64,000 nt of DNA, taken from assembly GCA_031261445.1 (NCBI GenBank), contig JAISJQ010000025.1, forward strand, positions 14,635-78,634. Reading direction: 5' to 3'. The stretch is from Oscillospiraceae bacterium. Lineage in GTDB: Bacteria; Bacillota; Clostridia; Oscillospirales; Acutalibacteraceae. Positions 2,699 through 56,122 of the stretch are shown piece by piece; position 1 is the stretch's first letter, and every line of letters starts with the position of its first letter. A program made the translations under genes and the position numbers. The notes below the pieces were generated by a model. That model was not told the origin of the DNA, made no database searches, and was given only the letters and a program-made list of their open reading frames with translations.

Positions 2699-3787
2699 AT
2701 GGACACCCAAGAACTCTTTGCCGCACTGCAAATGCTCTCAAAGGAGCGCAGCATCCCCATCGATGCCCTCTACGCCGCGCTGGAGAAGGCCATCATCACC
2801 GCTGTGAAAAAGGACTACAAAGAGCGCGAGGAGCGCGAAGACTTTGTGTTCTGCCACATCAACGGTGAGGACGAGACCATGCGCGTCTACCTGCGCAAAA
2901 ACGTCGTGAGCGAAATTCTGGACGACGCGACGGACATTCTGCCCGAACAAGCGCAGAAATACAAAGAAAACGCCAAGCTGGGCGACATCATTGAGATTGA
3001 CGTGGAGCCGCGCGGACTCTCCCGCGTGGTGGCCGACAAGGTCAAACACGTGTTGCGCTCCGGGTTGCGTGAAGCGGAAAACGGCATCATTCTGGATAAA
3101 TTCGCCCAGATTCTGGGGCAAATCCTCACCGTGCGCGTGGCACGCATTGACCACACAACGGGCGATGCCTTTGTGGAGCTGGGCAAGACGGAGGAAATCC
3201 TCCCCCGCTCCGCCCAACTGCCGGAAGAGAACTTCCGCGAGGGCGACCTCATCAAAATCTACGTGGCGGACGTAAAGAGCCAAGAGCGCGGCAAGCCCCG
3301 CCCGGTGCTCAGCCGCAAAGATCCCGGCCTTGTGCGCCGCCTGTTCGAGCTAGAAGTGCCCGAAATCGGCGACGGCACGGTGATCCTCAAGGACGTGAGC
3401 CGCGAGGCGGGCGTGCGCACGAAAGTGAGCGTCTACAGCGACGACGAGGTCGTCGATCCCGTGGGCGCGTGCATCGGCTCGCGCAGCCAGCGCATTGGCC
3501 GCATCACCGATACGCTCGCGGGCGAGCGCATCGACATCATCCGCTACAGCGAAGATCTGGCGGAATACATCAGCGCGGCGCTCAGCCCCGCCGAAGTCAT
3601 CCGCGTGGAGGTCGATGAGGCCGCCCACGCCACCCGTGTCATCGTGCCGGATAACCAGCTGTCTCTGGCCATTGGCAACAAGGGGCAGAACGTTCGCCTA
3701 GCGGCCAAGCTCACGGGTTGGAAGATCGATCTGGCCAGCGAAACGGACGAAAAAGGCCCGATCATCGACCTGTCGAAAGAACTTTAA
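2699..3787 (+). CDS. nusA: transcription termination/antitermination factor NusA
   Basis: 362 aa with S1 and two KH regions ([34 protein letters not shown]). Confidence 0.95.
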
Positions 3788-3790
3788 TTC

Positions 3791-3814
3791 AGTGAATAAG
3801 TAATAGTGAATAGG
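3791..3814. repeat. AGTGAAT/AAGTAAT heptad array
   Basis: agtgaat/aagtaat/agtgaat/agg, immediately after the nusA stop. Confidence 0.85.
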
Positions 3815-6739: not shown

Positions 6740-6744
6740 CGTTC

Positions 6745-6801
6745 CAATGAACAATTGACAATTGACAATGAACAATTGGTGGGGCGGCAGATTGCCGCCC
6801 C
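6745..6801. repeat. AATGAAC heptad array plus REP-like hairpin GGGGCGGCA-gat-TGCCGCCCC
   Basis: Read directly. Lies after the infB stop. Confidence 0.85.
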
Positions 6802-6817
6802 TTACAGAGGGGTTTCT

Positions 6818-7426
6818 ATGGACAACGTGGCACGCAAGCGAGCGGGCTTGCCCTATTGCTATGACGACCCGGCGTTGATGGGCGACCAGCATGTCTATCA
6901 AGACGTGATGGCACGCTACAACCGCACGTTGCCCACGCAAACCGCCGAACGCCAGCAAATCGCGCGGGAGATGTTCGCAGAGATTGGCGAGGGTTGCACG
7001 GTGGAAACACCCGTCCACGCCAATTGGGGCGGCAAACACGTGCATTTGGGGCGCGGGGTCTATATCAATTCCAACGTGACCTTCGTGGATGACGAGCATA
7101 TCCACATTGGCGACAACTGCCTCATCGCGCCGAACGTGGTGTTCTCCACCTCCGGTCACCCCATTTTGCCCATCCTCCGAGAACATCATTACGTCTATAA
7201 CCTGCCCATTCATGTGGGCGCGAACGTGTGGATTGGCTCGGGCGCACAGATCATGCCCGGTGTCACCATTGGCGAAAACAGCGTGATTGGCGCGGGCAGT
7301 GTGGTCACGCAGGATATCCCCGCGAACGTGGTCGCCTTCGGTGTCCCCTGCCGCGTCCAACGAGAAATCGGCGAACAAGACCGCCAGTTCTACTACAAAA
7401 AACGAAAATTAGACGTTTGGGAATAA
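6818..7426 (+). CDS. maa: sugar (maltose/galactoside-type) O-acetyltransferase, hexapeptide-repeat family
   Basis: LbH repeats (NVWIGSGAQIMPGVTIGENSVIGAGSVV). ATG 6818 (MDNVARK) behind GAGGGG. The ORF-track start at 6755 lies inside a repeat module. Confidence 0.8.
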   Translation: MDNVARKRAGLPYCYDDPALMGDQHVYQDVMARYNRTLPTQTAERQQIAREMFAEIGEGCTVETPVHANWGGKHVHLGRGVYINSNVTFVDDEHIHIGDNCLIAPNVVFSTSGHPILPILREHHYVYNLPIHVGANVWIGSGAQIMPGVTIGENSVIGAGSVVTQDIPANVVAFGVPCRVQREIGEQDRQFYYKKRKLDVWE

Positions 7427-7430
7427 AAAA

Positions 7431-7460
7431 CTATTCACTATTCACTATTCGTTATTCACT
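7431..7460. repeat. CTATTCA heptad array (reverse complement of the AGTGAAT family)
   Basis: ctattca/ctattca/ctattcg/ttattca. Confidence 0.85.
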
Positions 7461-7474
7461 TGAGGAGGTCAGCT

Positions 7475-7828
7475 ATGACGACCCACGCCAGCCACATGAG
7501 CGAGGACATTCGGCGCGAGCTCATCGCGCTCATTCGCGAACTGAAAGACCCGCGCGTGGCCGGGCAACTGCTCACCGTGGTGCGCGTGGAACTGACGCGC
7601 GATATGTCCGTGGCGCGAGCCTATGTGTCCGCGATGGCGGGGATGGACGCGACGCGCGAGAGCGTGCAGGCACTGGACAAAGCCAGCGGTCACCTGCGCC
7701 ACGAGCTGGGGCAACGCCTGCGCCTGCGCAAGGCGCCGGAACTGCGCTTCATTGCCGACGACTCGACCGAATACGCCGTACACATCAACGAAACGCTCGA
7801 ACAACTGCGGAACAATGAACAATTGTAG
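7475..7828 (+). CDS. rbfA: ribosome-binding factor A
   Basis: ATG 7475 behind GAGGAGG. Typical RbfA core (IRRELIALIRELKDPRV..LTVVRVELTRDMSVARAY). The last 5 codons and the stop lie in an AATGAAC heptad array. Confidence 0.9.
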   Translation: MTTHASHMSEDIRRELIALIRELKDPRVAGQLLTVVRVELTRDMSVARAYVSAMAGMDATRESVQALDKASGHLRHELGQRLRLRKAPELRFIADDSTEYAVHINETLEQLRNNEQL

Positions 7829-7845
7829 TCCGAAAGGATTGCCCC

Positions 7846-8823
7846 ATGGCGACTCTCCCGCTGAATTTGGTGCAGACCGCCGCGTTTTTGCGCGACGCTG
7901 AGGACATCCTGATCCTCACCCATGGCCACCCCGACGGGGACACGCTGGGGGCGGGCTTTGCGCTGTTGCGTGCGTTGCGGGGCATGGCCAAGCGCGTGCG
8001 GCTGTTCTGCCCGGACGAGATCCCCCCGAAGTTCAGCTTCATGGCCGACGGCATCAAGTACGCGCACTACGCGCCGCAGACCATCATCGCGGTGGATCTG
8101 GCGGACAAGTCCCTGCTGGGCGACAGCCGGGACGACTTCCCGGTGATTCACCTGTGCATCGATCACCACAGCGCCAACCGCCCCTACGCCGAAAATGCGT
8201 GGGTCGATCCCGCCGCCGCCGCCTGTTGCGAGATGATCTACCAACTCCTGCGGGAACTCAACGCGCCCATCACCCCCGCCGTGGCGGACTGCCTGTACAC
8301 GGGCGTCTCCACGGACACGGGCTGTTTTCGCTACTCCAACGTGACCAGCGGCACGCTGCGCATCGCCGCCAAGCTACTCGATTACGGCGCACGCGCGGCG
8401 AAGCTCAATCAGCAATATTTTGAGACCAAGCGCAAGGCATATTTCGTGCTGGAGCGCATGGCATTGGAGACGTTGGAAGTGCTGGAGCGGGGCAAATACG
8501 CGGTGACCGCGCTGACGCGGGCGATGTATGACGAGTCGGGCGCAGGGGAAGACGAGGCCGAGAGCATCGCGGCGATTCCACGGCAGGTGGAGGGCGTGCT
8601 CATCGGCGCGACACTCAAGGAGCGCAAGCAGGGCGGATTCAAAGCGTCCCTGCGTTCGGTCGCGCCCGCGGACGTGAGCCGCGTGGCCGCGCAGCTGGGC
8701 GGCGGCGGACACCTCCGCGCAGCCGGCTGCACGCTGGAAACACCAGATTTGTCCGAAGCCAGAGCGCAACTACTCGCCGCCGTGCGCGAAGAGCTGGCGC
8801 GGGTGAAAGAGGAAAAGGCATAA
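7846..8823 (+). CDS. nrnA: DHH-family phosphoesterase (NrnA-like oligoribonuclease/pAp phosphatase)
   Basis: HGHPDGD, CIDHH and GGGGH motifs (DHH plus DHHA1). Position after rbfA. Confidence 0.8.
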   Translation: MATLPLNLVQTAAFLRDAEDILILTHGHPDGDTLGAGFALLRALRGMAKRVRLFCPDEIPPKFSFMADGIKYAHYAPQTIIAVDLADKSLLGDSRDDFPVIHLCIDHHSANRPYAENAWVDPAAAACCEMIYQLLRELNAPITPAVADCLYTGVSTDTGCFRYSNVTSGTLRIAAKLLDYGARAAKLNQQYFETKRKAYFVLERMALETLEVLERGKYAVTALTRAMYDESGAGEDEAESIAAIPRQVEGVLIGATLKERKQGGFKASLRSVAPADVSRVAAQLGGGGHLRAAGCTLETPDLSEARAQLLAAVREELARVKEEKA

Positions 8824-8832
8824 AGGTATTGT

Positions 8833-8859
8833 GGCCGCGCTTTGCGCGGCCTGAATTTT
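8833..8859 (+). terminator. intrinsic terminator after nrnA
   Basis: GGCCGCGC-TTT-GCGCGGCC hairpin followed by TGAATTTT. Confidence 0.6.
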
Positions 8860-8878
8860 GGAAAGATGAGGGGTTCTT

Positions 8879-9688
8879 ATGAAAACGAAGTCAAAAAAAG
8901 TCAAATTCGTGTTGGCGGTTGCGCTGGCGGTTGTGGTGGTTGGGGTTGGGGCGGCTTTGTATTTTTCGGAGGATAAGGTTGTGCCGGAGGATGTAAAGAA
9001 CGTGGCGACTGTCGTGGTTATCGCGGGGGAAGAGTACTTGTCGGACGAAACAAGTCTAGTGTTGCCCTATACGGGTCTGACAGATGGAGATGTTGAAATT
9101 ATCGCCAATAGCTTTACTGATTTGGAACTGCTAGATATTTCAGACAATCCCAAGATTACGAATATTGCGCCGCTAGCTAAATTGAAAACGCTGAAAGACC
9201 TATCAGTCTACACCACGCAGGTTTCGGATGTTTCAGCAATCGGCGAACTGACGGAGCTAGAGAGTTTGGTTCTTGGAACCAGCAAAATACAGGACATAAC
9301 CCCTTTGGCGAAGCTGAAAAATCTAACGTTTTTAACTCTTTACAATAAGGAAGTTTCAGATCTTTCCCCTCTGTCCAAGCTGACACAGTTAAAAACTTTA
9401 CATGTAGGATCTGTATACACGAAGACACTTACAGATTTGCGCCCTTTGGCCGCCCTGACCAATCTTACCTATCTTGGTATAATTGAAGCTCCCGGCGTCA
9501 AAGACATTTCGCCTCTTGCTGACCTGAAAAACTTGGATGAATTGCATTTGTCAGACCTAAACATCAGCGATCTAAGTTCTATTGCTGGTCTAACAAGACT
9601 TAAGAAATTGTATTTATACAACAACAAAACCTCCGTCACCGACTGGTCGCCTGTGGCGCACGTGCCAGACGTTGACGGTCGCCCATAA
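8879..9688 (+). CDS. membrane-anchored leucine-rich-repeat (internalin-like) protein
   Basis: N-terminal TM helix, then about 8 LRR units of 22 aa (LxxLxxLxLxxTxVSDISPL). GC is visibly lower than in the neighbours. Confidence 0.75.
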   Translation: MKTKSKKVKFVLAVALAVVVVGVGAALYFSEDKVVPEDVKNVATVVVIAGEEYLSDETSLVLPYTGLTDGDVEIIANSFTDLELLDISDNPKITNIAPLAKLKTLKDLSVYTTQVSDVSAIGELTELESLVLGTSKIQDITPLAKLKNLTFLTLYNKEVSDLSPLSKLTQLKTLHVGSVYTKTLTDLRPLAALTNLTYLGIIEAPGVKDISPLADLKNLDELHLSDLNISDLSSIAGLTRLKKLYLYNNKTSVTDWSPVAHVPDVDGRP

Positions 9689-9707
9689 CCCACCCTAGGA
9701 GTCCCCC

Positions 9708-10271
9708 ATGCAATACGATCTTTACGACTTTGACGGCACGGTTTACAGCAAGGAAACCGAGAGCCAGTTTTACCTTTACTGCCTGCTGCGGCGGCCATAC
9801 ATCTTGCCGCTGCTCCCCTTTCAGCTGCTGAGCCTGGTCTGCCGCTTCACCGCCCGCGCCCGTGCGCAGTGGATGGCGCGTTGGTTCTGCTTCCTGCGCT
9901 TCGTGGACGGTCCAAAGCTGGCCGCGCGATTTTGGGCGGCGCACAAACGCTACATCCGCCTCATCGACGACCCCGCTTCGCGCCCGCGCCCTGTCGCCAT
10001 TTGTAGCACGACGCCCGTGTTTTTGCTCGCGCCCGTCTGCGCCATGTTTGGCGTGGACTGCGTCATCGGTACGGACATTGACCCGCGCACGGGACGCTCC
10101 ACGGGGGACATCCTGCGCGGACAAGCCAAAGTGCCCGCGATTCACGCCGCACTGCCGGACGCACAGTTCGTCCGCGCGTACTCTGACCGCCCAGTGCTGG
10201 ACGCGCCCATGCTCGCGCTGGCGCAGGAACAATATCAGGTACACAAAGATGGGTCACTTACACGGCTGTAG
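9708..10271 (+). CDS. HAD-IB family hydrolase/phosphatase
   Basis: N-terminal DFDGT nucleophile motif, 187 aa. AGGAG RBS. Confidence 0.6.
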   Translation: MQYDLYDFDGTVYSKETESQFYLYCLLRRPYILPLLPFQLLSLVCRFTARARAQWMARWFCFLRFVDGPKLAARFWAAHKRYIRLIDDPASRPRPVAICSTTPVFLLAPVCAMFGVDCVIGTDIDPRTGRSTGDILRGQAKVPAIHAALPDAQFVRAYSDRPVLDAPMLALAQEQYQVHKDGSLTRL

Positions 10272-21022: not shown

Positions 21023-21071
21023 GGGCGACCGAGGACGGTCGCCCCTACGGGCAATTGTTCATTGTTCATTG
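21023..21071. repeat. REP-like hairpin (..CTAC) plus GTTCATT heptads overlapping the exporter gene stop
   Basis: GGGCGACCgaggacGGTCGCCCCTAC, then caattgttcattgttcattg. Confidence 0.85.
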
Positions 21072-21622
21072 GTTTCCCCCCGCACTGGCCGTATAACGTG
21101 GTTGACCGCGACGCTCACGGCGATGCCCAGAGCCGTGTCTAGGATGCGATTGAGGGCGTAGAGGTACGGCAGTTCGCGCTCGTTCGCGCCCACCAGCAGG
21201 ATGATGAACGTCACCGCGCAGATGGCGCAAGCGTCGCGGCGGTCGAGCAGGAGCATCAGCCAGATGACCAGCATACAGCCCACCAGCAGGAACAAAATGT
21301 TCAGCCGCCCGCCCCAGACGTGCGCACTGATCCACATGAAGCCCAGCCCCACCGCGCCGCCCACCGCCGTGCCCAGCAGTCGCCCGCCGCCGCTGTGCAG
21401 GGAGTGCGCGACGGTCTGTTGCATACAGATCACCGCCGCCACGCAGGCGAACAGGGGCTCTTGCATGGTGAGGAATGCCCCCACGGACGCGACAAAGCCC
21501 GTGCCGTGCGTCACCAGCGCTTGCCCCAGCGCCGCCAGCCCGAGGAACAGCAAGAGACACACCGTCACAGCCAAGGCGGTTTTGACCGTGCGCATACCGA
21601 GTTTGGGGATTTTTGTTTTCAT
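21059..21622 (-). CDS. aromatic acid exporter (ArAE/FUSC-like) family membrane protein
   Basis: MRTVKTALAVTVCLLLF N-terminus and 5-6 TM helices. The stop lies in a heptad array. Confidence 0.6.
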   Translation of the reverse strand: MKTKIPKLGMRTVKTALAVTVCLLLFLGLAALGQALVTHGTGFVASVGAFLTMQEPLFACVAAVICMQQTVAHSLHSGGGRLLGTAVGGAVGLGFMWISAHVWGGRLNILFLLVGCMLVIWLMLLLDRRDACAICAVTFIILLVGANERELPYLYALNRILDTALGIAVSVAVNHVIRPVRGETNEQ

Positions 21623-21672: not shown

Positions 21673-21783
21673 CAATTAACAAAGAACAATTGTCTGTAGG
21701 GGCGACCGTCCCTACATATAAACAACGCAGATTGTCCATGCCTCACCCGCCTCACGCCTGTATCCTCAGTCCTCATGCCTCAC
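21673..21783. repeat. AAC-type heptads, GTAG hairpin, and a CCTCA-type heptad array overlapping the rarA stop
   Basis: 21673-21692, 21696-21715 and 21737-21783, read directly. Confidence 0.85.
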
Positions 21784-23097: not shown

Positions 23098-23244
23098 GGA
23101 GGGATGAGGATTCAGGATACAGGCGTGAGGCCTGTAGGGGCGGCAACCTGCCGCTGTTAAGACGGCAGATGTCAGAGGACAGATCTTTAGGCGCAATTCT
23201 GTCCTCTTCAAGGTCAGCGGGCGCGCAGGGGCGCGCGCCCCTAC
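23098..23244. repeat. GAGG heptad array plus composite element bounded by inverted REP-like hairpins
   Basis: 23098-23133 heptads, GTAG hairpin 23134-23154, CAGAGGACAGA..TCTGTCCTCT 23167-23208, hairpin ending CCCCTAC 23217-23244. Confidence 0.85.
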
Positions 23245-24701: not shown

Positions 24702-24764
24702 ATACGCAAAATGTACGCCCCCGCCGCAGAATAGTGATTATTCTTACACAAAGAAGGTGATTCT

Positions 24765-25658
24765 ATGTGGTCAAGCCTCATAATCTCAACAGCCTTAAAA
24801 ACACTTGCTGAAATATTTGCTGCGTATGGAATTGGTAAAGGACTTGACGCTCTCGCAGAAAAAATGAAAAGAAATACGTGGGAATGGCAATTAATTAAAG
24901 CTATGGAAGAAACATGTAAAAGCTACACTTGGGACTATGACTCTAAACGGATAAGTATAGTTGCGCAAAATCAACAAGCTCCGCAGAGCTCAACGAACTT
25001 CCTGCGAGCTTTACTCTCTGATATGATAGGACATGACGTTACCGAAAATGAATTATCGCAATGGCTTCGCACTTTTAGTGGCGTGGTTGCAAACATGCGT
25101 TTTGTTGCGCTCCGAGATTACCTTCAGTTGAATTTCACAACCACTTATCCACTGATTTCTGCATTTTCTGCTGAAAAACCGATTGATTCAGCTGTTTTCC
25201 CATCGAATGCTCCACAAAATAATCTGAACCTTTTCTTTTCTGTGCAAACGTTCTTAGCATATCATATTAACGAAAATTACTATGGCGGCGTACATTTCGT
25301 TTGGTGCGCAGATAGTTTTGATGATAAAGAACTCCCACCTTTTGCAAATCCCAAAAGCATTTACCACTCTTTGATTAATACCAAGGACAAATACAGCCGG
25401 AGTATTAATGAAAAAATGAAAGGCATTCTGGCGGGTGCCGCCCAGATGTATGCCAAAGGAAAAATTAATAAAAAAGAGCTGAAAGAGATAATAGATATTG
25501 TAAATCGTGCACCCGTGCACCATTTTCGTCCCGTTTTATATCTGATTCACAAGTTACTCATTCAACCCGAGAGAATTGACACCGTTGTCTCTTATCGTAA
25601 CAACATTCATATTATCGCTGACCTAAGTTCCAATGAGTGCGAGATGTTAGAACTATGA
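24765..25658 (+). CDS. hypothetical protein in a low-GC island
   Basis: 297-aa ORF with GAAGGTGA RBS. The AT-rich composition is sharply different from the flanks. I cannot assign a domain. Confidence 0.6.
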   Translation: MWSSLIISTALKTLAEIFAAYGIGKGLDALAEKMKRNTWEWQLIKAMEETCKSYTWDYDSKRISIVAQNQQAPQSSTNFLRALLSDMIGHDVTENELSQWLRTFSGVVANMRFVALRDYLQLNFTTTYPLISAFSAEKPIDSAVFPSNAPQNNLNLFFSVQTFLAYHINENYYGGVHFVWCADSFDDKELPPFANPKSIYHSLINTKDKYSRSINEKMKGILAGAAQMYAKGKINKKELKEIIDIVNRAPVHHFRPVLYLIHKLLIQPERIDTVVSYRNNIHIIADLSSNECEMLEL

Positions 25659-25721
25659 CATGTTATTCGAAGAACTAATCAAGATATACACTACTGAGAA
25701 TTGATATGCTTTGCGCCACAT

Positions 25722-25751
25722 AAAAAACAGGCGCAAGGTTTCCCCTGCGCC
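25722..25751 (-). terminator. intrinsic terminator after argG
   Basis: Minus strand: GGCGCAGG-GGAAA-CCTTGCGCC followed by TGTTTTTTA. Confidence 0.7.
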
Positions 25752-25762
25752 CGCCAACGTGT

Positions 25763-26986: not shown

Positions 26987-27060
26987 AATGCAAAACTCCT
27001 TGTTCACAGATGGTGGTTAGTATACCAGATTTTCGCGAAAAATGCAATTGCCGGCTAGCG

Positions 27061-27153
27061 CAATGAACAATTAACAAAGAACAATGAACAATTATTCGCA
27101 ACGGGCGGCAACTTGCCGCCCCACAACAATTGTTCATTGTTCATTGTTCATTA
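27061..27153. repeat. nested inverted repeat: AATGAAC array / hairpin GGGCGGCAactTGCCGCCCC / GTTCATT array
   Basis: 27061-27094, 27103-27122 and 27124-27153. Confidence 0.9.
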
Positions 27154-27164
27154 CATTCACGCCG

Positions 27165-27425
27165 TCATTCCGCCGCCGGCTCTTCTTCCTCAAACATTTC
27201 TAGCATGGTGCAGCCCAACACTTCGGCCAGCGCCCGTAGCTCATAATCGGCCACAGAACGTATCTGTCCCTCGATTTTTGAGAGACCGCTGGAATTGAGA
27301 TCAATTCCCATAATCTGCAGTTGGCTGAGTAGGTCTTTCTGCTTAATATTCAGCTCTTTGCGACGCCTAGCAACAAAAGCGCCCACAATATTGCGGTCTC
27401 CAGTGGAGAGTTTTCGCACGCGCAC
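27165..27425 (-). CDS. XRE-family helix-turn-helix transcriptional regulator
   Basis: 86 aa. GTG start behind GGAGG. HTH_3-like segment (RRRKELNIKQKDLLSQLQIMGIDLNSSGLSKIEG). Confidence 0.75.
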   Translation of the reverse strand: MRVRKLSTGDRNIVGAFVARRRKELNIKQKDLLSQLQIMGIDLNSSGLSKIEGQIRSVADYELRALAEVLGCTMLEMFEEEEPAAE

Positions 27426-27539: not shown

Positions 27540-27660
27540 GCATTATGAACAAAATAGACCGTTTGTTCTGAAAAAGTTAACAAAAAAACGTTGAAATGTT
27601 ATCACTCTTGGGGCATAATCGGTTGTCGGGTACACATTTGGGGATACGCACAACGCTTCG

Positions 27661-27700
27661 CGCCTGCATCCTCACGCCTCATCCCTCAATGCCCTCATTC
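27661..27700. repeat. CCTCA-type heptad array overlapping the oxidoreductase stop
   Basis: cgcctgcatcctcacgcctcatccctcaatgccctcattc. Confidence 0.8.
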
Positions 27701-28651: not shown

Positions 28652-28665
28652 ATTCGCACTCCTTA

Positions 28666-28717
28666 CTAGATGCTAAGCAAATAATTGTACATTGTAAATT
28701 GTTCATTGTTCATTGAA
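28666..28717. repeat. short CTAGATG unit plus GTTCATT-type heptad array abutting the mgtA stop
   Basis: ctagatgcta ... ttgtacattgtaaattgttcattgttcattgaa. Confidence 0.8.
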
Positions 28718-31647: not shown

Positions 31648-33348
31648 TTAGGTGACCGTCACCTTGCAGGTCGCCTTTTTGCCGTTATAGAGCTTGACGG
31701 TGATGATGGCCGTGCCCTTTTTCTTGGCGGTGACAACGCCTTTCGCGCTCACGGTGGCCACCTTTTCGTTATTGCTCTCCCAAGTGACCGCGCTGGCGGT
31801 GTTCGCTGGCAGGGTACTCTTTAAGGTCAGCGTTTTCTTCACGGCCAGTTTCGCCGTGGTCTTGCTGATGGTCACTTTGCTGGGGGCGGCTTTCACCGTC
31901 ACGGTGAACGTGGCGGGCTTTTTGTTGTATGTCGTCACCGTGATGGTGGTTTTGCCCACGCCTTTGGCGGTGATGCGCCCCGCAGAATCCACGGTGGCGA
32001 TTTTGGAATTCGCGCTTTTGTACGTGCGCGTGGTTTGCGCGGCGGCGGGTGTGAGCGTGACGGCGGTGGCGTATTTCTCCCCCACGCCCAGCGTGACGGA
32101 TTTCACCTTATAGGCAATCTTTGTGGGCGCGGCCTTGACGGTGACGGTGAATTTCGCGCTCAGCTCGTTATAGGTCGTGACGGTGATGGTGGCCTTGCCC
32201 ACGCCTTTGGCGGTGATTCTGCCCGCAGAATCCACGGTCGCGATTTTTTCGTTGTCGCTTTTATACGTGCGCTTGTCCTTCGCCGCCGCAGGGGTGAGGG
32301 TCACGGCAGAGCTGTATTTCTCCCCCACGCCCAGCGTGATAGACGCTGGCTTGAAAGCGATTTTTGTGGGCACGGCTTTCACCGTCACGGTGAGATTGGC
32401 GACCAATTTGTTGTAGCTTTGCACTTTGATGGTCACCGTGCCCACGCCCACGGCGGTGACAACGCCGTCCGCGTCCACGGTGGCGATCTTCTTGTTGGCG
32501 CTCGTATATGTGCGCTTGTCCCGGGCGTTCGTGGGCGTAATCGTCACGGCTGAGCGATACTTTTCGCCCACACCCAGCGTCACGGCAGTGCTCTTATAGG
32601 CAAGCGCGGTCGGCGCAGGCAGGACGGTGACGGTCAGCTCGTCGGTTAAGCTGTTATAGCTTTGCACTTTGATGGTGGTCGTGCCCACGCCAACGGCGGT
32701 GACAACGCCGCTGGCATCCACGGTGGCGACTTTTTTGTTTAAGCTGGTATACGTGCGGCTGTCCTTGGCCGCCTTCGGCGCGAGCGTGACGACGGTGGTA
32801 GCTTCTTCGCCCACGCCCAGCGTGAGGGGCGCGGTTTTGTAGGCCAGATCCGTCAAGGCCTCCAGCACCGTGACGGTCTGCGTGGCGGTCTTGTTGTTGT
32901 AGCTGGTGACGGTGATGGTGGCGGTGCCCGCGGCCACGGCGGTCACTTTGCCGCTGGCGTCCACGGTGGCGATGCTCTCATCGGAAGAGATGTACGTGCG
33001 CACCGCCTTGGCATCCGCAGGCGTTAGGGTGAGCGCGGGGGTGTTGATTTCGCCCACGCCCAGCGTGCTCTCGGCGGCTTTGAAGGCGATATCCTTGAGC
33101 GCAGGCTTCACGGTGATGACCAGCTTCGCGCTCTGATTGTTATAGGTGGTGGTGACGGTGATGGTGGCCGTGCCGGCGGCCTTCGCGCTGATTTTCCCGG
33201 CCGCGTCCACGGTCGCCACGGCCGTGTTGGAGGACGCATAACTGCGCCCACTGGCCGCACCGCCCGGCGTGATGACCGTGCTTGTCGCCAACGTTTGCCC
33301 CACGGCCAGCAGGGTCTCGCTTGCGCTGAGGGTGATGCCCGTGGGCTT
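31648..33348 (-). repeat. in-frame tandem repeats of ~240 nt encoding 7 Big_2 domains
   Basis: Adjacent units are highly similar at protein level (e.g. ..KIATVDSAGRITAKGVGKATITVTTYN.. twice). Confidence 0.8.
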
Positions 33349-34404
33349 GGGCGTGACGGCAATGGGGATGCTCGCCGTGGCGGTCGCGCCATTCAGGGCG
33401 TAACTGACGGTGACGGCAGTGTCCGTGGTCTTGAGCGCGGCGGTGGGGACGGTGTACGCCGTGACGGCGGCGGATTTGCCGTTGTTATAAGTCGCGGTGA
33501 CGACCAGTCCCGTTTTGTCGAACTTCTCGTCTTCAACGTACTGCACTTTGGCGGGCTTGGCGGTGATGGACAAGGCCGTGGGCTTTTTGCCGGACACCGT
33601 GATGGCCTGCGTGGTGGTTTTGGTCACAGACGCGTGGGTGTAGCTGATGGTCACGCTCTTGGTGGCGGTCGTCAAGGCCGCCGTGGGAACGGTGTAGGCC
33701 GTGACCGCGCCAGACGTGCCGTTGTCATAGGTCGCGGTGACAACCATGCCGCTTTTGTTGAAGACTTCGTCTTCTATGTAGCCCGTCTTGCTGGGCGGGG
33801 CAGTGACGGCGATTTGGGTCAGTGCCTTGGCACGCACACTGATGGGCGTGGTGGTGGTGACGGTCTGGCCGTTTTCGGTGTAGCTGATGGTCGCGCTGGT
33901 GCTCCCGGTGGTGAGCTTTGCGCTGGGGACGGCGAAATTGGTGACGGCGGCAGACGTGCCATTGTCATAATCCACGCGGACGGTCAAGCCCGCCTTGTCG
34001 AAGAGCTGCTCTTCAATGTACGCCGTCTTGTTGGGCGCGTGGGTGACGGTGATTTTGGTGGGCGTTTTGGCGCGAATGGTGATGGGCACTTCCGCTTGGA
34101 TCGTCCGCACCGCCGAGAGCTGCCAGATGACGTAGATTTTCTCGCCGGCTTTGGTGATATCGTCAGAAATGGCGTAATTCTGCACCGTTTCGGGCTCGCC
34201 TTCGGCGTATTGCAGCTGGACAACCATGCCCTTGGGCTCAAAGCGGTCGCCCTCAAGATAGTCATTTTTGGTGGGCGGGGTGAGGACGACGATGGCCGTG
34301 GGCTGATCCGCCGCCAATGCGGAAAAAGTGCCGACAAACGCGCCCATGAGCACGCAGACAGCCGCGACCAGCGCGAGCATTTTTCTGGGAAATGTGTGTT
34401 TCAT
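31648..34404 (-). CDS. cell-surface protein with 4 Big_3-like and 7 Big_2 Ig-like repeats
   Basis: Start MKHTFPRKMLALVAAV (signal peptide). Repeated YxEGxxFDxxGLxVxxxYxNG units, then repeated ATVDxxGxVTAxxxGTATITV units. Confidence 0.85.
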   Translation of the reverse strand: MKHTFPRKMLALVAAVCVLMGAFVGTFSALAADQPTAIVVLTPPTKNDYLEGDRFEPKGMVVQLQYAEGEPETVQNYAISDDITKAGEKIYVIWQLSAVRTIQAEVPITIRAKTPTKITVTHAPNKTAYIEEQLFDKAGLTVRVDYDNGTSAAVTNFAVPSAKLTTGSTSATISYTENGQTVTTTTPISVRAKALTQIAVTAPPSKTGYIEDEVFNKSGMVVTATYDNGTSGAVTAYTVPTAALTTATKSVTISYTHASVTKTTTQAITVSGKKPTALSITAKPAKVQYVEDEKFDKTGLVVTATYNNGKSAAVTAYTVPTAALKTTDTAVTVSYALNGATATASIPIAVTPKPTGITLSASETLLAVGQTLATSTVITPGGAASGRSYASSNTAVATVDAAGKISAKAAGTATITVTTTYNNQSAKLVITVKPALKDIAFKAAESTLGVGEINTPALTLTPADAKAVRTYISSDESIATVDASGKVTAVAAGTATITVTSYNNKTATQTVTVLEALTDLAYKTAPLTLGVGEEATTVVTLAPKAAKDSRTYTSLNKKVATVDASGVVTAVGVGTTTIKVQSYNSLTDELTVTVLPAPTALAYKSTAVTLGVGEKYRSAVTITPTNARDKRTYTSANKKIATVDADGVVTAVGVGTVTIKVQSYNKLVANLTVTVKAVPTKIAFKPASITLGVGEKYSSAVTLTPAAAKDKRTYKSDNEKIATVDSAGRITAKGVGKATITVTTYNELSAKFTVTVKAAPTKIAYKVKSVTLGVGEKYATAVTLTPAAAQTTRTYKSANSKIATVDSAGRITAKGVGKTTITVTTYNKKPATFTVTVKAAPSKVTISKTTAKLAVKKTLTLKSTLPANTASAVTWESNNEKVATVSAKGVVTAKKKGTAIITVKLYNGKKATCKVTVT

Positions 34405-34539
34405 CAAAATACCTCCTAAGTTGGAGCGCAAGAAGCCCCACTATACAGCTAATAGTATAGCGTAAGCGGTCGAAAAAGTCAAACGGCTGAGAGGAGAGAG
34501 GCGTGACGAATCAGCCCACAAGAATGCATTTCTAGAAAC

Positions 34540-34581: not shown

Positions 34582-34614
34582 GTGTGTCGGTAGAGGAACT
34601 ATTTGGAGGGATGC

Positions 34615-35352
34615 ATGAAAAAACTATGGAAAGCGCTAAAAATCGCGGGGATCTCGCTACTCGCGTTGCTCGTTGCGGCAACGGGGTACTACTTCATCCG
34701 TGGGCAACTGTTTCCGCCAACGAAAGTGCTTAAAAACTCCATCATCGTTGACAGCTTGTTTGACATACGAGAACCCGTGAATAGTGCCGCCACACTCGGG
34801 TATATTTTCGTTGCAAAAGTTGAAAAAATCACCGATTATCACGCCAATAAGCTTCTGAGAAAATTCCCAGCGTTCATAAAAAACGAAAGTGATTTCAATT
34901 TCCCGCACGGTCGATATCCCTATTCCGAGCTCAACGTAACCGTTGTACGGAACATCAAAGGCAATTTACCCGAAGGCAAGGAAATTCCCATCTATGCGGG
35001 CTTTGGCTACAATGCCCTGCTGACACACGTTGATAGACAAGCCTATTCCGAGCTACCCGAAACAGGAAAAACGTATCTGTTTCTGTGCAACACAACATCG
35101 GATAACGATCTAGTGGTCATTTCAGACAGTCAAACGCACTTGGATGGAGAAGTAAGTGCCGAAAATGTTGCGCAGTTCGACGTTGTGCGTAGCTATCAAA
35201 AGGCGGTGGTGGCGGCGCAAGACGCAAAAAACGTGCCGAAAATCGTGCTAAAATTCAATGCGCAAAGAGAGATTTTCTTGTCCAAATACGACAGCGACTA
35301 CACACATAAAGGACAAAAAATTCCCGACGATGAAATCGTTGGGAAAGAGTAG
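34615..35352 (+). CDS. membrane-anchored hypothetical protein (lower-GC gene)
   Basis: Start MKKLWKALKIAGISLLALLVAA behind GGAGGG. No recognisable domain. Confidence 0.55.
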   Translation: MKKLWKALKIAGISLLALLVAATGYYFIRGQLFPPTKVLKNSIIVDSLFDIREPVNSAATLGYIFVAKVEKITDYHANKLLRKFPAFIKNESDFNFPHGRYPYSELNVTVVRNIKGNLPEGKEIPIYAGFGYNALLTHVDRQAYSELPETGKTYLFLCNTTSDNDLVVISDSQTHLDGEVSAENVAQFDVVRSYQKAVVAAQDAKNVPKIVLKFNAQREIFLSKYDSDYTHKGQKIPDDEIVGKE

Positions 35353-35355: not shown

Positions 35356-35430
35356 TGAGGCAACCCAGGCGTGAGGGGGTACGCTGGGCGATTTGTGCAT
35401 ACCCTCATTCCTGTATCCTCATCCCTCATT
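35356..35430. repeat. inverted GAGG / CCTCA heptad arrays between convergent genes
   Basis: tgaggcaacccaggcgtgaggggg ... accctcattcctgtatcctcatccctcatt. The right arm contains the response-regulator stop. Confidence 0.8.
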
Positions 35431-36112
35431 ACTCAAACCGATACCCCACGCCGCGCAGGGTGACGATGTGCTCTTTGTGCCGCCCAAGGCGCGCACGGAG
35501 GGTTTTGATGTGCGTGTCCACCGTGCGGTCGTCGCCGAAAAAGTCGTAGCCCCAGACCTTAGAGAGCAGCGTTTCACGGCTGAGCGCGATGTTTTTGTTG
35601 CGCACCAAAAAGAACAGCAGGTCGTATTCTTTGGGCGTGAGCTCCGCTTTTTCGCCGTCACAGGTGACGGTACGCGCGGTCATGTCAATCGCCAGCGCGT
35701 CGTCTTCGTAGACCTCGTGCCCGTCCGCGTCTGTGGCGGGATCTTTATTCTCCGCCGCGCGGGTGATGATGGCGGCAATGCGCGCGATGACCTCCCGCAC
35801 GGAAAACGGCTTGGTGACGTAGTCGTCCACGCCCAGCTCAAAGCCGAAGAGCTTGTCGTATTCCTCCCCCCGCGCCGAGAGCATCAGGATGGGCACGCCC
35901 GACGTTTTGCGGATCTCCTTGCAGGCGGTGAAACCATCCATGCGCGGCATCATGATGTCCAGCACAATCAGGTCAAACGCGGTCTCCCGCGCCATCTGCA
36001 CGGCCGCAAAGCCGTCCGCCGCTTCGCTCACTTCGTAGCCCACAAAGCGGGCATATTCCGCAAAGCCCTCGCGGATGGCCGCCTCATCGTCGGCGATTAA
36101 AATGTGGCTCAT
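35429..36112 (-). CDS. OmpR/PhoB-family response regulator
   Basis: Receiver domain (ILIADDE..LDIMMPRMDG) plus winged-helix domain (LTPKEYDLLFFL..TLRGVGYRF). No histidine kinase is adjacent. Confidence 0.9.
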   Translation of the reverse strand: MSHILIADDEAAIREGFAEYARFVGYEVSEAADGFAAVQMARETAFDLIVLDIMMPRMDGFTACKEIRKTSGVPILMLSARGEEYDKLFGFELGVDDYVTKPFSVREVIARIAAIITRAAENKDPATDADGHEVYEDDALAIDMTARTVTCDGEKAELTPKEYDLLFFLVRNKNIALSRETLLSKVWGYDFFGDDRTVDTHIKTLRARLGRHKEHIVTLRGVGYRFE

Positions 36113-36125
36113 GGGGTGCTCCTTA

Positions 36126-36162
36126 CTAGAAATTAGATATTAGAGACTAGATGCTAGATTTT
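36126..36162. repeat. CTAGATN heptad array (5 units in perfect 7-nt phase) in the response-regulator 5' UTR
   Basis: TAG at 36127, 36134, 36141, 36148 and 36155. Confidence 0.9.
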
Positions 36163-36894: not shown

Positions 36895-37569
36895 GTGAAC
36901 ATCCTGGCGGCAATTTTGGCGGCAGGCTCTGGCTCGCGGGTGGGGGCGGACGTGCCCAAGCAGTATCTGCCCATCGGCGGCGTGCCCATGCTGCGCCGTG
37001 CGGCGGATGCCTTTTTGTTGCACCCAGCTGTCGACCAAGTGGCGGTGTTTTGCCCAGCGGATTGGCTCGCGCAGACCCGCGCAATCTTTGCGGACACGGG
37101 CGCGGTCATTCTCCCCGGCGGCGCAACGCGCACGCAAACCCTAGAGCGCGTGGTGGGTTTTTGGCGCACGGATTCCGGCAATCCCGACGACATTTTGCTC
37201 ACGCACGACGGCGCACGCCCACTCGTCAGTGCGCGGATTATCCACGCGAACATCGCCGCCGCGCGGACATACGATGCCGTGGGCACGTATCTGGCCTGCG
37301 CAGATTCGCTCGTGCGCGGGGAGGGCGACACGGTGACCACACCCGTCAGCCGCGCGGGTGTGTACCGCGCACAGACGCCCCAGACCTTCCGCGCAGGCGC
37401 ACTGGCGGCGCGGTTGGCGCAGCTCACGGACGCACAAAAAAATGCCCTCACAGACGCATGCGGCATCTTCACGCTGTTGGGCGAAACGGTGCATATCGTG
37501 CCGGGCGAGGCAATCAACTTCAAGATTACCACGGCGGATGATTTGCGATTGGCAGAAGACAGAAAATAG
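36895..37569 (+). CDS. ispD: 2-C-methyl-D-erythritol 4-phosphate cytidylyltransferase
   Basis: AAGSGSRVG..PKQYL motif. GTG 36895 is 1 nt after the aroQ stop. An alternative ATG lies at 36877. Confidence 0.85.
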   Translation: MNILAAILAAGSGSRVGADVPKQYLPIGGVPMLRRAADAFLLHPAVDQVAVFCPADWLAQTRAIFADTGAVILPGGATRTQTLERVVGFWRTDSGNPDDILLTHDGARPLVSARIIHANIAAARTYDAVGTYLACADSLVRGEGDTVTTPVSRAGVYRAQTPQTFRAGALAARLAQLTDAQKNALTDACGIFTLLGETVHIVPGEAINFKITTADDLRLAEDRK

Positions 37570-37614
37570 AGGGCAGAATCTTGTACTAGACAGGTGCGAC
37601 CACTCCGCACGGAT

Positions 37615-38539: not shown

Positions 38540-40375
38540 ATGTGTGGAATTGCTGGCGTGATTAGTTTCGACCGAACGCCCGATGTGGGGGTGCTGCTGG
38601 GGATGCGCAACGCCTTAGTCCACCGCGGGCCGGATCAGCAGGGGCTGTATTTAGGCGAGCATGTGGGGCTGGCGCACACGCGGCTGAGTGTGGTGGATCT
38701 GGCGCACGGGCAGCAGCCCATGCGCTTGCGGCGGGGCGAGGCCGAATACTGGCTGGTCTACAACGGCGAGCTGTATAACACGGATGAATTGCGCCACGAG
38801 CTGCAGGCGGCGGGTTATCGCTTTGCGGGGCACAGCGACACCGAGGTGCTGCTGGCCGCGTGGGCACACTGGCAGGAGGGTTGCCTAGCGCGACTCAACG
38901 GCATTTTTGCGTTTGCCGTGTGGGAAAAACACCGCGAACGCTTGATTCTGGCGCGGGATCGCATGGGTGTAAAGCCTTTAGCCTTTACAGTCCAAGACGG
39001 CGCATTGATCTTTGCGTCTGAGTTAAAAGCGATCCTGACCGTGCCCGGCGTGGCGGCAAAACTCGATTCGGCGGGTGTGGCAGAGCTGGCGTTGCTCAGC
39101 CCCGGACGCACGCCGGGGCGGCTATTATTGAAAGATATGCAGGAACTCAAGCCCGGTCAGTGGGCGATTTTTTCGCGCGACACTGGCTTACAAACGCACA
39201 CCTATTGGAAACTCAAGGCGGCGAAACACACGGACAGCGCCGACGAAAGCGTCGAGCATGTGCGCTATTTGGTCAAGGACGCCATTGAACGGCAGCTGGT
39301 CAGCGATGTGCCCGTGGGGACGCTACTCTCTGGCGGGCTGGATTCGTCGGTGATTTCCAGCGTGGCGGACATCTATTTTACCGCGCGTGGGCAACGGCTC
39401 AAGACCTTTTCGGTGACCTATAAAGACCAGAAAAAGCACTTCCGCGCCGGAAAATTCCAGCCGAACGCGGACGACGAATATATTGCGCGGATGAACCGCT
39501 ACCTGAGCGCGGAGCACTTTGACGTGGTGCTCGACACCCAAGAGCTGGCCTGCGCCCTGCGCACCGCGCTGGAGGCGCGGGATCTGCCGGGCATGGCGGA
39601 CGTGGACAGCTCGCTACTCCTGTTTTGCCGCGAGATTCGCAATGAAGTGACCGTGGCGCTCAGCGGTGAGTGCGCGGATGAACTTTTTGGGGGGTATCCG
39701 TGGTATCGCGACGAGACGATTCGCGCACGGGCGGGGCTACCGTGGGCGCAGAGCACGGACTATCGCTACGGCTTTCTGCGCCCGGAGTGGCGTGCGCAAA
39801 TCGACCCTGCGGCGGTGGTACGCGCACAATACGAGGCGGTGCGTGCGGACACAGATGTGCAGGACGATGCGCCGGAAAGTCACAAGAATCTGCAACGCAT
39901 GGTGCGCCAGAACACGGACTTGTTCATGCAGACGCTGCTCACGCGCAAGGATGCCATGAGCATGGCCAGTGCGCTGGAAGTGCGCGTGCCGTTTTGTGAC
40001 TATCGCCTGGCCGAGTACCTCTACAACGTGCCGTGGGAGATCAAGGAACTGGGCGGGCAGGAGAAGGGTTTGCTCCGCACGGCGATGGCGGACTTCCTGC
40101 CCCACGAGGTATTGCACCGCAAGAAAAGCCCCTATCCCAAGACCCACAACCCCGCCTATTTACAGGTGGTGCGCGACATGCTGCGCGAAATATTGGACGA
40201 CCCCAACGCGCCTCTCTTTGCCCTGTTTGACCCGGCCGCGCTGGCGGGGCTACTGACCGAAGACGGCCGCTCCCTGCCGTGGTACGGGCAACTGATGACC
40301 ACGCCCCAAACCATCGCGTGGTTCGTGCAGGTCAATCACTGGCTCAAAAAATTTCATGTAGATGTTAGAAACTAG
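38540..40375 (+). CDS. asnB: asparagine synthase (glutamine-hydrolysing)
   Basis: MCGIAG nucleophile Cys2 and SGGLDSS PP-loop. 611 aa. Confidence 0.92.
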   Translation: MCGIAGVISFDRTPDVGVLLGMRNALVHRGPDQQGLYLGEHVGLAHTRLSVVDLAHGQQPMRLRRGEAEYWLVYNGELYNTDELRHELQAAGYRFAGHSDTEVLLAAWAHWQEGCLARLNGIFAFAVWEKHRERLILARDRMGVKPLAFTVQDGALIFASELKAILTVPGVAAKLDSAGVAELALLSPGRTPGRLLLKDMQELKPGQWAIFSRDTGLQTHTYWKLKAAKHTDSADESVEHVRYLVKDAIERQLVSDVPVGTLLSGGLDSSVISSVADIYFTARGQRLKTFSVTYKDQKKHFRAGKFQPNADDEYIARMNRYLSAEHFDVVLDTQELACALRTALEARDLPGMADVDSSLLLFCREIRNEVTVALSGECADELFGGYPWYRDETIRARAGLPWAQSTDYRYGFLRPEWRAQIDPAAVVRAQYEAVRADTDVQDDAPESHKNLQRMVRQNTDLFMQTLLTRKDAMSMASALEVRVPFCDYRLAEYLYNVPWEIKELGGQEKGLLRTAMADFLPHEVLHRKKSPYPKTHNPAYLQVVRDMLREILDDPNAPLFALFDPAALAGLLTEDGRSLPWYGQLMTTPQTIAWFVQVNHWLKKFHVDVRN

Positions 40376-40540
40376 GAACTAGGTGTTACGTGTGAGGTAG
40401 ACGCTGATGCCTCTACCTGTAGGGGCGAGCTATGCTCGCCCGCTGTGAAGACGCCAGCTTTTCGGGTGCGCAATTCTGTCCTCTGCCTTCTGATTCCTGT
40501 CTTCTGCTAGCTCAGCGGGCGAGCGCAGAAACGCCCCTAC
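40358..40540. repeat. TAGA-type heptads (contain the asnB stop) plus composite element bounded by inverted REP-like hairpins
   Basis: 40358-40388 heptads, GTAG hairpin 40419-40443, linker plus CTCTG heptads 40439-40507, degenerate hairpin ending CCCCTAC 40515-40540. Confidence 0.85.
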
Positions 40541-42569: not shown

Positions 42570-42800
42570 GTAGGGGCGGATATCATCCGCCCGCCGTTTG
42601 ATTTGTAGGGGCATTGAGGTATGAGGCGTGAGGGTTCAGGAATGAGGGTTGTAGGGGCGCACGCCCCGTGCGCCCGCTGTGAAGACGACAGATTTTCGGG
42701 TGCGCAATTCTGCCCTCTGCGTGAATCAGTGGGCGCACAGGGGCGTGCGCCCCTACGGGGATACCTGCCCGCCACACGGGCGGCGGATTGCCACCCCTAC
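42570..42800. repeat. dense cluster: GTAG hairpin, GAGG heptads, composite element with inverted hairpins, degenerate hairpin
   Basis: 42570-42594, 42613-42650, 42651-42756 and 42776-42800. Confidence 0.85.
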
Positions 42801-47579: not shown

Positions 47580-47580
47580 G

Positions 47581-47785
47581 TAATAGTGAATAGGTTTTGG
47601 GATGAGGTTCGTAGGGGCGGATATCATCCGCCCGCCGTACAGAGGGCAGAGCGTTTCGCGCCTTGTATCCTCACGCCTCTGTAGGGGCAACCCTTGTGGT
47701 TGCCCTGCGGGTATGGTTGCCCCGATAATGTATTTTCCGTAAAGGGCGACCATACCCGCAGGGCACAGGCAAGGGTTGCCCCTAC
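47581..47785. repeat. AGTGAAT heptads, GTAG hairpin, and a 105-bp element with 28-bp inverted termini enclosing an 11-bp-stem hairpin
   Basis: 47581-47596, 47611-47635 and 47681-47785. Confidence 0.85.
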
Positions 47786-49995: not shown

Positions 49996-50007
49996 GTCTG
50001 TTCCTTT

Positions 50008-50068
50008 CTAGATGCTAGATTTTAGATGTTAGGTGCTAGATATCGAAGCTCTAGTGTCTAACATCTAA
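50008..50068. repeat. CTAGATN heptad array plus short inverted copy containing the aminotransferase stop
   Basis: tctagat/gctagat/tttagat/gttaggt/gctagat ... tctaacatctaa. Confidence 0.85.
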
Positions 50069-51348: not shown

Positions 51349-51422
51349 CAGAGGAGAGAAGGCAGATGTTTGGATCTGCGAGTCTGTCTTCTGTCTTCTG
51401 CCCTCTGACTTCTGAATTCTGA
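51349..51422. repeat. inverted CAGARRN / NYYTCTG heptad arrays
   Basis: cagaggagagaaggcagatg ... tctgcga/gtctgtc/ttctgtc/ttctgcc/ctctgac/ttctgaa/ttctga. Confidence 0.85.
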
Positions 51423-51426
51423 TGAA

Positions 51427-56110: not shown

Positions 56111-56122
56111 ACAGGAGTTTTT

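Follow-up and report, generated by a model that had tools for sequence, protein, structure and literature searches.

Dispersed tandem heptanucleotides reportedly occur in the non-coding DNA of heterocystous cyanobacteria, where Mazel and co-workers are said to have described them in 1990 as short tandemly repeated repetitive (STRR) sequences, and long simple-sequence repeats (SSRs) were reportedly the subject of work by Mrazek and colleagues in 2007. To our knowledge, neither an orientation rule at gene ends nor nesting with repetitive extragenic palindromic (REP) elements has been described for the heptamers of the STRR or long SSR classes. Here we consider the heptad arrays in 64,000 nucleotides from an Oscillospiraceae bacterium (GenBank assembly GCA_031261445.1, contig JAISJQ010000025.1, positions 14,635 to 78,634 of the forward strand; this whole stretch is called the window, and coordinates are counted from its first letter), with particular attention to the 3´ end of rbfA, where an array codes for the last residues of the protein and the stop codon. 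We estimate a probability of about 0.6 that the heptads belong, as arms, to selfish palindromic repeats of the spacers, and that the stop codons are an incidental result of the fixed purine-first polarity of these repeats.

Two heptamer systems are particularly close. G-rich heptamers, GGGAATC in Xanthomonas and GGGGA(C/T)T in Nostoc/Anabaena, form strongly intergenic tandem units (Rehm et al., 2015; PMC4692102). They lie nearer the 5´ neighbouring open reading frame (ORF) whatever its orientation, on the coding strand 0-50 bp after stops, overlaps included, and on the non-coding strand before starts; some form inverted tandem pairs, and their function was left unresolved (PMC4692102). The arrays of the window resemble them in being tandem 7-nt units confined largely to spacers, in following the same boundary rule at stops and starts, and in forming inverted pairs. 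However, the G-rich heptamers are quadruplex-forming G-tracts without stops (PMC4692102), whereas the window has five A/T-richer Firmicute families that are often nested with REP elements and that supply stops and C-terminal codons.

The second system comprises the TAACTGA direct repeats of marine Beggiatoaceae, cyanobacteria and Bacteroidetes, which occur as 2-6 units in spacers (MacGregor, 2015; PMC4679880). Since the forward strand of TAACTGA stops all three frames, overlap with an ORF end is limited to about 18 nt at most; 13 sets overlap the upstream stop, and insertions were argued to be tolerable only at protein termini (PMC4679880). Spacer location, forward-strand stops and short stop overlaps are shared with the window. 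In contrast, TAACTGA arrays have their forward strand directed at the start codon downstream and often reach to 1 nt before it, and a single inverted repeat was found in 170 sets (PMC4679880), while arrays near starts in the window are pyrimidine-sense and inverted pairing is usual. Given that both the boundary rule and the stop overlap are already documented, the window adds a further example, from a Firmicute and with different heptads.

Arrays in the window were located with Tandem Repeats Finder and a period-7 scan of our own, and were assigned to five families, written here in their purine-rich orientation: A (GAACAAT), B (GAATAGT), C (CTAGATN), D (CAGARGN) and E (TGAGGNN). There are about 55-58 arrays of these families in the 64 kb, totalling 1337 nt, of which 89% falls in intergenic DNA (10.8% of the window), so that about 17% of the spacer DNA is made up of arrays. 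Only three arrays lie deep within genes, each a degenerate match of two units. The arrays are more AT-rich than the genome, the GC content of the window being 59% overall, 60.5% in coding sequence and 47% in spacers. At the plus-strand 3´ end of rbfA (PF02033), the array (7810-7828) belongs to family A and consists of two GAACAAT units and TGTAG: positions 7810-7823 read GAACAATGAACAAT, TGTAG follows, and the rbfA frame gives the tail R-N-N-E-Q-L and an in-frame TAG at 7826-7828. The 14-mer occurs 17 times in the window at one mismatch or fewer and 0 times in 100 shuffles; the terminal 18 bases of rbfA are a two-unit copy of one of the five heptad-periodic modules.

We tallied all gene 3´ ends with a heptad array within 25 nt. 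The purine-rich strand is in sense at 20 of them and in antisense at one, maa (binomial p=2.1e-5), the in-sense arrays comprising 8 of family A, 2 of B, 3 of C, 3 of D and 4 of E. The first-pass annotation had named 16 gene ends at which the stop-bearing strand was in sense, and direct reading bore this out for 16/16, the array lying at or just after the stop in each case; four further in-sense cases are ispD, ORF 34603-35352, gene 51427-53268 and an HtrA-like gene (63434). The accompanying claim that the array supplies the last codons and the stop itself in several genes also held, for roughly half of the 20 cases and up to six codons. The largest overlaps with an ORF end are 19 nt (rbfA), 17 nt (ispD) and 16 nt (rarA), short overlaps like those of TAACTGA-type repeats. 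We also considered replication strand as a cause of the orientation and rejected it: GC skew is uninformative, and the arrays of asnB, the tagD-like gene, ispD and ORF 34603-35352, plus-strand genes in a mostly minus-strand region, follow the gene.

On the plus strand, a purine-type arm of family C (NNNCTAG / CTAGATN; 2555-2593) holds the rimP stop, TAG at 2558-2560, and pairs with a pyrimidine-type arm of the same family at 2640-2675 (AATCTAACATCTAG.., minus strand; fold z=-6.9), which ends 24 nt before the nusA ATG, just upstream of the Shine-Dalgarno (SD) sequence. The nusA stop is the first triplet, TAA, of a family B module (TAATTCAGTGAATAAGTAATAGTGAATAGG; 3785-3814), a 90% identical copy of which lies at 60395-60423 (dispersed family D19). 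A family A array begins 8 nt past the infB stop (6745-6779) and is followed by a REP-like hairpin (6783-6803), an SD sequence and the true start of maa, ATG at 6819. A family E purine arm (35357-35379) lies 5-13 nt past the stop of ORF 34603-35352; its partner, at 35400-35434, is on the minus strand an array directly after the stop of a response-regulator gene (35429-35431), again purine-sense. The ispD stop, TAG at 37567-37569, falls within a family D array (37553-37580) that was absent from the first-pass annotation. A family C array codes for the AsnB tail ..VDVRN and the stop at 40373-40375 (40358-40388), and a family B array follows directly on the stop of the tagD-like cytidylyltransferase gene (47580-47596).

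On the minus strand, family A arrays code for ..TNEQ and the stop of an exporter gene (array 21054-21073, gene 21059-21622), code for ..VEQ and the stop of ORF 53334-55823 (53329-53343), lie 12-15 nt past the stop of ORF 27165-27425 (27129-27153; partner 27058-27092 around a REP hairpin, z=-6.0), lie 2-6 nt past the stop of a P-type ATPase gene (28684-28716, with no complementary partner within the 66-nt spacer) and lie at the ylbF stop (60554-60588, z=-4.7), where the array is the outer 3´ arm, on the top strand, of a nested element at 60385-60588. A variant of family A (GTACAAT/GACAATT, dispersed family D4) directly follows the obg stop (61917-61944). Family E arrays code for RVRHED and the rarA stop (21747-21783) and lie 7 nt past the stop of a GFO/IDH/MocA oxidoreductase gene (27653-27687). 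A family C array holds the stop of an aspartate aminotransferase gene (50041-50068), with a partner at 50004-50042 that abuts the SD sequence of the next gene (z=-5.0). Family D arrays lie 4-5 nt past the stop of gene 51427-53268 (51387-51423, a stop-free purine strand in sense; partner 51349-51369) and 4 nt past that of the HtrA-like gene (63409-63431; partner 63371-63398, z=-7.3). Matches to Pfam confirm the asparagine synthase, cytidylyltransferase, P-type ATPase, GFO/IDH/MocA oxidoreductase, response regulator, aspartate aminotransferase, exporter, ispD and aroQ assignments, and the identities of YlbF and Obg were confirmed; the gene at 53334 that had been labelled 'GH' has no Pfam match.

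At gene starts the rule is mirrored. Arrays within about 26 nt upstream of a start have the pyrimidine strand in sense in nine cases (nusA, rbfA, rarA, the oxidoreductase, the response regulator, gene 47860-49995, the aminotransferase, gene 56123 and gene 57757-60384) versus about one in the other orientation, and an array near a start is purine-sense only where a very tight junction places it on the stop of the gene before. This also accounts for the array after maa (7430-7460, minus; family B pyrimidine-type, ACTATTC x3-4), the sole array at a stop in anti-orientation. It had been set apart as a counter-example, and its orientation at the stop is indeed opposite, yet it obeys the deeper rule: with the rbfA ATG 24 nt downstream, it borders on the ribosome-binding site of that gene, and its orientation is that expected on the start side.

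In paired arrays of the window the purine arm lies 5´ of the pyrimidine arm in 13 cases versus 0. The arrays thus have one polarity: the purine-rich version is read from either gene boundary into the spacer, with the 5´ arm purine and the 3´ arm pyrimidine on either strand. It follows from this single spacer polarity that genes see the purine strand in elements at their 3´ ends and the pyrimidine strand in elements at their 5´ ends. The pyrimidine arms of family C (28652-28680, 36113-36160, 49996-50042 and 56075-56122) terminate right on the SD sequence of the gene that follows (..TCTAGTAAGGAG, ..TCTAGAAAGGAA, ..TCTAGAACAGGAG). One of them, at 36122-36160, is purine-type on the top strand (dispersed family D17) and is separated by 13 nt from the start of the response-regulator gene on the minus strand, so that the pyrimidine-type strand is in the sense of the gene and ends on its SD sequence. 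These SD-ending arms look as if the module carried, or was trimmed to, a ribosome-binding site.

Extra stops are held to limit the cost of read-through and frameshifting, both in the case of tandem or backup stops and under the hidden-stop (ambush) hypothesis. Those ideas concern single codons under weak selection, whereas the window has repeat arrays, and our tests speak against selection on stops. One of the readings offered in the first-pass annotation was that in-sense arrays are selected three-frame buffers that catch read-through or frameshifted ribosomes with rotating TGA, TAG and TAA codons. In its favour, families A, B, C and E have arrays at 18 stops, 17 of them with the stop-bearing strand in sense; all frames are closed after a somewhat shorter median distance at array ends (126 nt versus at least 150 nt, p=0.015); and in a genome this GC-rich (60.5% in coding sequence) chance stops are rare. 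We nevertheless consider selected buffering improbable as the cause of the orientation. The expectation that three consecutive units close three frames is borne out at few sites: all frames are closed within 50 nt past the stop at only 7 of 20 ends, and the rbfA array itself closes two (TGA in frame 2, TAG in frame 0). Closure is seldom realised because it would need a stop in every unit, and the description of about one stop per unit on one strand was loose, the values for the purine and pyrimidine strands being 0.53 and 0.11 for family A, 1.83 and 0 for B, 1.0 and 0.96 for C, 0.05 and 0.18 for D, and 0.57 and 0.07 for E. In families A and E the purine strand has only about 0.5 stops per unit.

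Conservation within units and the behaviour of stop-poor families point the same way. In family A conservation is 0.89-1.0 over the core ACAAT and lowest at G1 (0.74) and A2 (0.69), which make the TGA; in family E the AGG core does not vary, and conservation is again lowest at T1 (0.74) and G2 (0.72), bases needed for the TGA. Families C, with stops on both strands, and D, with a nearly stop-free purine strand, serve as natural controls, and both still have the purine strand in sense, at 6/6 gene ends, although numbers in each are small (3 each), which weakens the case for a polarity common to all families. Stop-free heptads of other phyla, described below, are oriented alike, arrays are not kept at orthologous stops, and the mirror rule holds 9:1 at starts, where stops serve nothing. 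Stops are not the organising principle of the arrays. Their stop-richness is due to composition: of the four triplets in which two purines follow a T, three are stops, and since 7 = 1 mod 3, purine-rich heptads with a T almost inevitably bring stops, the frame shifting from unit to unit, whereas stops hardly ever occur in their complements.

The modules are copies of dispersed elements, since the order of variant heptads is conserved between loci. Dispersed copies share this order over 28-67 nt (dispersed families D4, D6, D9, D14, D17 and D19), examples being the GCGCAATGAACAATTAACAAAGAACAATGAACAATTGT-type copies at 1751, 27053 and 55893 and the GAGGCGTGAGGGATGAGGATACAGGCGTGAGGYCTGTA copies at 780, 1836, 23099 and 42616. 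The family E purine arrays at 780-814, 1836-1870, 23099-23133 and 42616-42650 contain repeated SD-like GAGG, an ATG or GTG 5-9 nt on and then TGA, and are potential start-stop mini-ORFs. Shared variant order also bears on local microsatellite growth by replication slippage at gene ends, as in contingency loci, with no mobile element involved. Heptanucleotides are the commonest long SSRs in prokaryotes, with slippage the proposed source, according to work cited in PMC4679880. However, besides sharing the order of variants, the window loci are fused to REP cores, the arrays come as inverted pairs, and the associated genes are housekeeping genes, so that growth by slippage seems to us scarcely credible.

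REP elements and their composites, bacterial interspersed mosaic elements (BIMEs), are mobilised by REP-associated tyrosine transposases (RAYTs), reportedly the subject of work by Nunvar in 2010 and Ton-Hoang in 2012. The cores in the window are similar in being multi-copy, GC-rich imperfect palindromes headed by GTAG that are intergenic, occur in both orientations and often form inverted pairs, and differ from classical REP elements, which are not known to be flanked by heptad-periodic arms. The REP core GTAGGGGCG occurs 19 times in the window versus 0.37 expected, and GTAGGGGCGG-loop-CCGCCC copies (dispersed family D18) have the GTAG head and imperfect GC-rich palindrome of REP-type anatomy. 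Family E arrays are joined to the GC-rich hairpin that begins with GTAG, and one complete composite, at 1751-1980, is a nested palindrome of A arm, E arm, GTAG-REP hairpin, E´ arm and A´ arm (minimum free energy -119 kcal/mol, z=-12.9). The element at 60385-60588 has the order C, B, A, E, REP, E´, A´ (z=-4.7, as given above for its outer arm). Among traits of miniature inverted-repeat transposable elements, inverted arms are present; comparison of the rimP/nusA and nusA/ylxR junctions with those of a relative (L005) gives whole-spacer replacement at these two junctions, without recognisable duplication. A Y1 transposase was not found among the approximately 20 window ORFs scanned against Pfam, and no search aimed at RAYT was made.

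The REP family appears to have a distribution of its own. An exact REP 23-mer, GTAGGGGCGGATATCATCCGCCC (window 42570-42597 and 47611-47638), is present in at least 120 metagenome contigs, including contigs from the human gut, and 734 kb of such contigs from other organisms hold only 9 heptad arrays. Since contigs with the REP 23-mer are almost without heptad arrays, the REP family has a much wider distribution than the heptad modules. Three Logan short-read contigs (L001, L246 and L247, corresponding to window 7431, 60.6-63.4 kb and 1.9-5.5 kb) are 100% identical to the window and just 2.8-3.6 kb long; L001 begins exactly at the B array at 7431, so arrays appear to break up assemblies.

The paired arrays form hairpins, with folding z of about -5 to -13, and it is possible that these are functional intercistronic RNA structures, with a purine arm on the stop and a pyrimidine arm on the next ribosome-binding site, that act in mRNA processing or stability or in coupling termination to reinitiation. 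One hairpin fills the interval from stop to SD at rimP/nusA, at the aminotransferase and the next gene, at the 51427 gene and the aminotransferase, and at ylbF and the next gene; the nusA/ylxR and GtrA/glnA junctions of L005 are likewise filled exactly, and the pyrimidine arms of family C end on the SD sequence. Against this, a comparison of sense and antisense folding energies gives no consistent sense advantage, half of the arrays have no hairpin, positions differ between related genomes, a Rfam scan of the window gave no match at the gathering threshold, and terminator-like sites are not enriched. We therefore regard a function of the hairpins as unlikely to explain the pattern. Intrinsic, possibly bidirectional, terminators were also considered and rejected, with 36 sites versus 24.5±5.3 and 23 versus 20.9±3.9 in shuffles, few of which coincide with elements. 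The only textbook intrinsic terminator seen, at 25726-25755, follows a 297-codon ORF that lies in a region of lower GC (24702-25762, about 0.53-0.56), has no Pfam match and possibly belongs to acquired DNA. A scan of the window for tRNA and tmRNA found none.

The other reading in the first-pass annotation, that elements at gene ends remodel C-termini, fared better. Sequence conservation among RbfA relatives (52-78% identical) ends at TLxxL, and the 3-18 residues that follow are unrelated (for example GVVPEEEPP); the window protein has RNNEQL there. RimP ends in ..KADDF-stop in the window, the TAG lying inside the C array, and in ..KADDFDG-stop in L005. RarA is conserved to YWxx(I/V)K with variable tails after it, and its last six codons in the window, RVRHED, are family E heptads. 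Array-coded tails thus replace variable tails in RbfA, RimP and RarA, relatives have arrays at other junctions or none, and the alignment of orthologous C-termini proposed as a check found no identical C-termini in orthologues free of arrays. In L005, the GtrA tail ..KKQLTI-stop is array-coded and a C-type hairpin supplies the nusA stop with its first TAG.

Relatives also bear on the age of the arrays. Those with RbfA or Obg 69-78% identical to the window proteins have few or no arrays, at junctions different from those of the window. In the genome represented by L005 and L248, whose Obg is 77% identical, 33 kb hold about five arrays, at other junctions and without the REP core, and the relatives L002, L003 and L249-L252 have essentially none. 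The scarcity or absence of arrays in the nearest relatives retrieved fits a recent lineage-specific expansion of selfish or neutral repeats, and probably of selfish ones, better than conserved function at given stops. The infB-rbfA junction itself is variable: the two genes are directly adjacent in L003 and L005, a different GNAT acetyltransferase gene lies there in L002, and in the window (6740-7474) a maltose-acetyltransferase-like gene, with its true start at 6819, occupies the junction, flanked by an A array with a REP hairpin and by a B array. Upstream of obg, L248 has 2.3 kb (7730-10000) with ORF calls of 48-56 aa only, apparently non-coding.

How might selfish palindromic repeats come to spell the ends of genes? 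In the mechanism we propose, heptad modules and GTAG-type REP hairpins would together build dispersed, often nested, palindromic repeats that have expanded in the spacers of this genome. Elements would insert or spread into short spacers and would survive only with an edge in, or beyond, a dispensable C-terminal tail. The ORF would then stop at the first in-frame stop of the module, which would give the last 0-6 codons, so that remodelling of the C-terminus would be a near-neutral side effect. Half-elements would keep their orientation because the arm adjoining the gene stays while the rest decays. The enzyme that spreads the elements is a candidate source of the polarity, as a property of its own.

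Several observations weigh against this account. Of the arrays next to stops, roughly half lack a complementary partner and show no folding advantage over shuffled sequence (nusA, rbfA, the P-type ATPase, the 53334 gene, obg and tagD), and since these unpaired arrays are oriented too, hairpin symmetry alone is not the whole cause; that half-elements are decayed palindromes is something we infer. The model takes the purine-first polarity as given, and selection for a stop at the entry of the element could in principle have favoured this polarity in families A, B and E. The same difficulty recurs in other phyla, where 87 of 125 arrays have no clear partner and are still oriented 27:1 at stops among the matches listed, a limit that applies to all cross-phylum counts given here, and where gene calls are simple longest-ORF calls.

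The orientation of unpaired arrays, 27:1 at stops, would be expected if selection acted on the edges of elements, setting a polarity that hairpins then follow. With such a compatibility filter, the entering edge must stop the ORF and the exiting edge must be free of SD-like or ATG decoys; purine versions carry GAGG with ATG or GTG and TGA as mini-ORFs (family E) or ATG..TGA (family A), which would be harmful before a real start. However, stop-free G-rich heptamers and family D follow the rule, and arrays wholly past the stop should be free in orientation, yet are not. A filter of this kind is accordingly a doubtful explanation for the polarity, and we continue to prefer selfish palindromic repeats of fixed polarity.

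The rule extends far beyond this genome. A scan for (GAAYART)x3, with one genome per species, gave at least 120 loci (L006-L125) in more than ten phyla, among them cyanobacteria, Bacteroidota, Acidobacteriota, Clostridia, Planctomycetota, methanotrophs, Mesorhizobium and others. Among GAAYART arrays with a single boundary within 25 nt, those that follow a stop are purine-sense in 38 cases and pyrimidine-sense in one (p=1.5e-10), with the stop usually within the first unit. On the start side, 8 are pyrimidine-sense and 6 purine-sense, and approximately 8 more pyrimidine-sense arrays lie inside over-extended ORFs. An inverted partner lies downstream of the purine arm in 37 cases and upstream in 1, and a significant hairpin follows only 11 of 42 stop-side arrays. 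Taking all period-7 arrays in the collected loci, the sense strand at ORF ends is purine-rich in 76 and pyrimidine-rich in 9; this recount includes arrays read through by ORFs and keeps the bias, so we rejected an ORF-calling artefact as its source.

Other heptads in these loci behave in the same way. Forty-four arrays of other families have the purine strand in sense 35:0, with 9 intermediate, and the sense strand that closes more frames is a poorer predictor (26 close more, 8 fewer and 10 an equal number). Heptads that are stop-free on both strands (GGGAATT, AATTGGGC and AGCAGAR) also have the purine strand in sense. Many GAAYART arrays are followed by another heptad of pyrimidine type, for example TTTTCAC or CCATTCAC, and GAACAGT/CAACAGT-like units are present in the cyanobacterial loci of the scan. 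It is possible, though we think it unlikely, that purine-in, pyrimidine-out polarity is a general, mechanistically enforced rule of bacterial spacers, for instance if pyrimidine-rich RNA is tolerated only where initiating ribosomes shield it from Rho, and purine-rich RNA is tolerated after the stop.

Two further features of the window were noted. Inside the minus-strand ORF 31648-34431 (928 aa), five to six tandem units of 243 nt (81 aa, 62-76% identical) at 31875-33250 probably belong to a repeat-domain surface protein. Between ylbF and obg (61121-61632, minus), two overlapping ORFs of 85 aa, one of them DUF2442, resemble a small toxin-antitoxin-like pair.

For annotation of this genome, the arrays matter because about 38% of the gene ends in the window draw their stop from, or adjoin, a repeat, because starts are easily over-extended through the open pyrimidine arm, and because short-read assemblies break at arrays. 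If shielding from Rho were the cause of the polarity, the modules would be portable cassettes, with a stop at the 5´ edge and a 3´ edge friendly to ribosome binding, that colonise operon junctions. The habit of turning the purine strand toward the nearest gene is found in many phyla and is backed by the cross-phylum count. A pattern of stops at gene ends as striking as that in this bacterium can arise without selection for stops, from the arithmetic of purine 7-mers and from repeats of fixed polarity.

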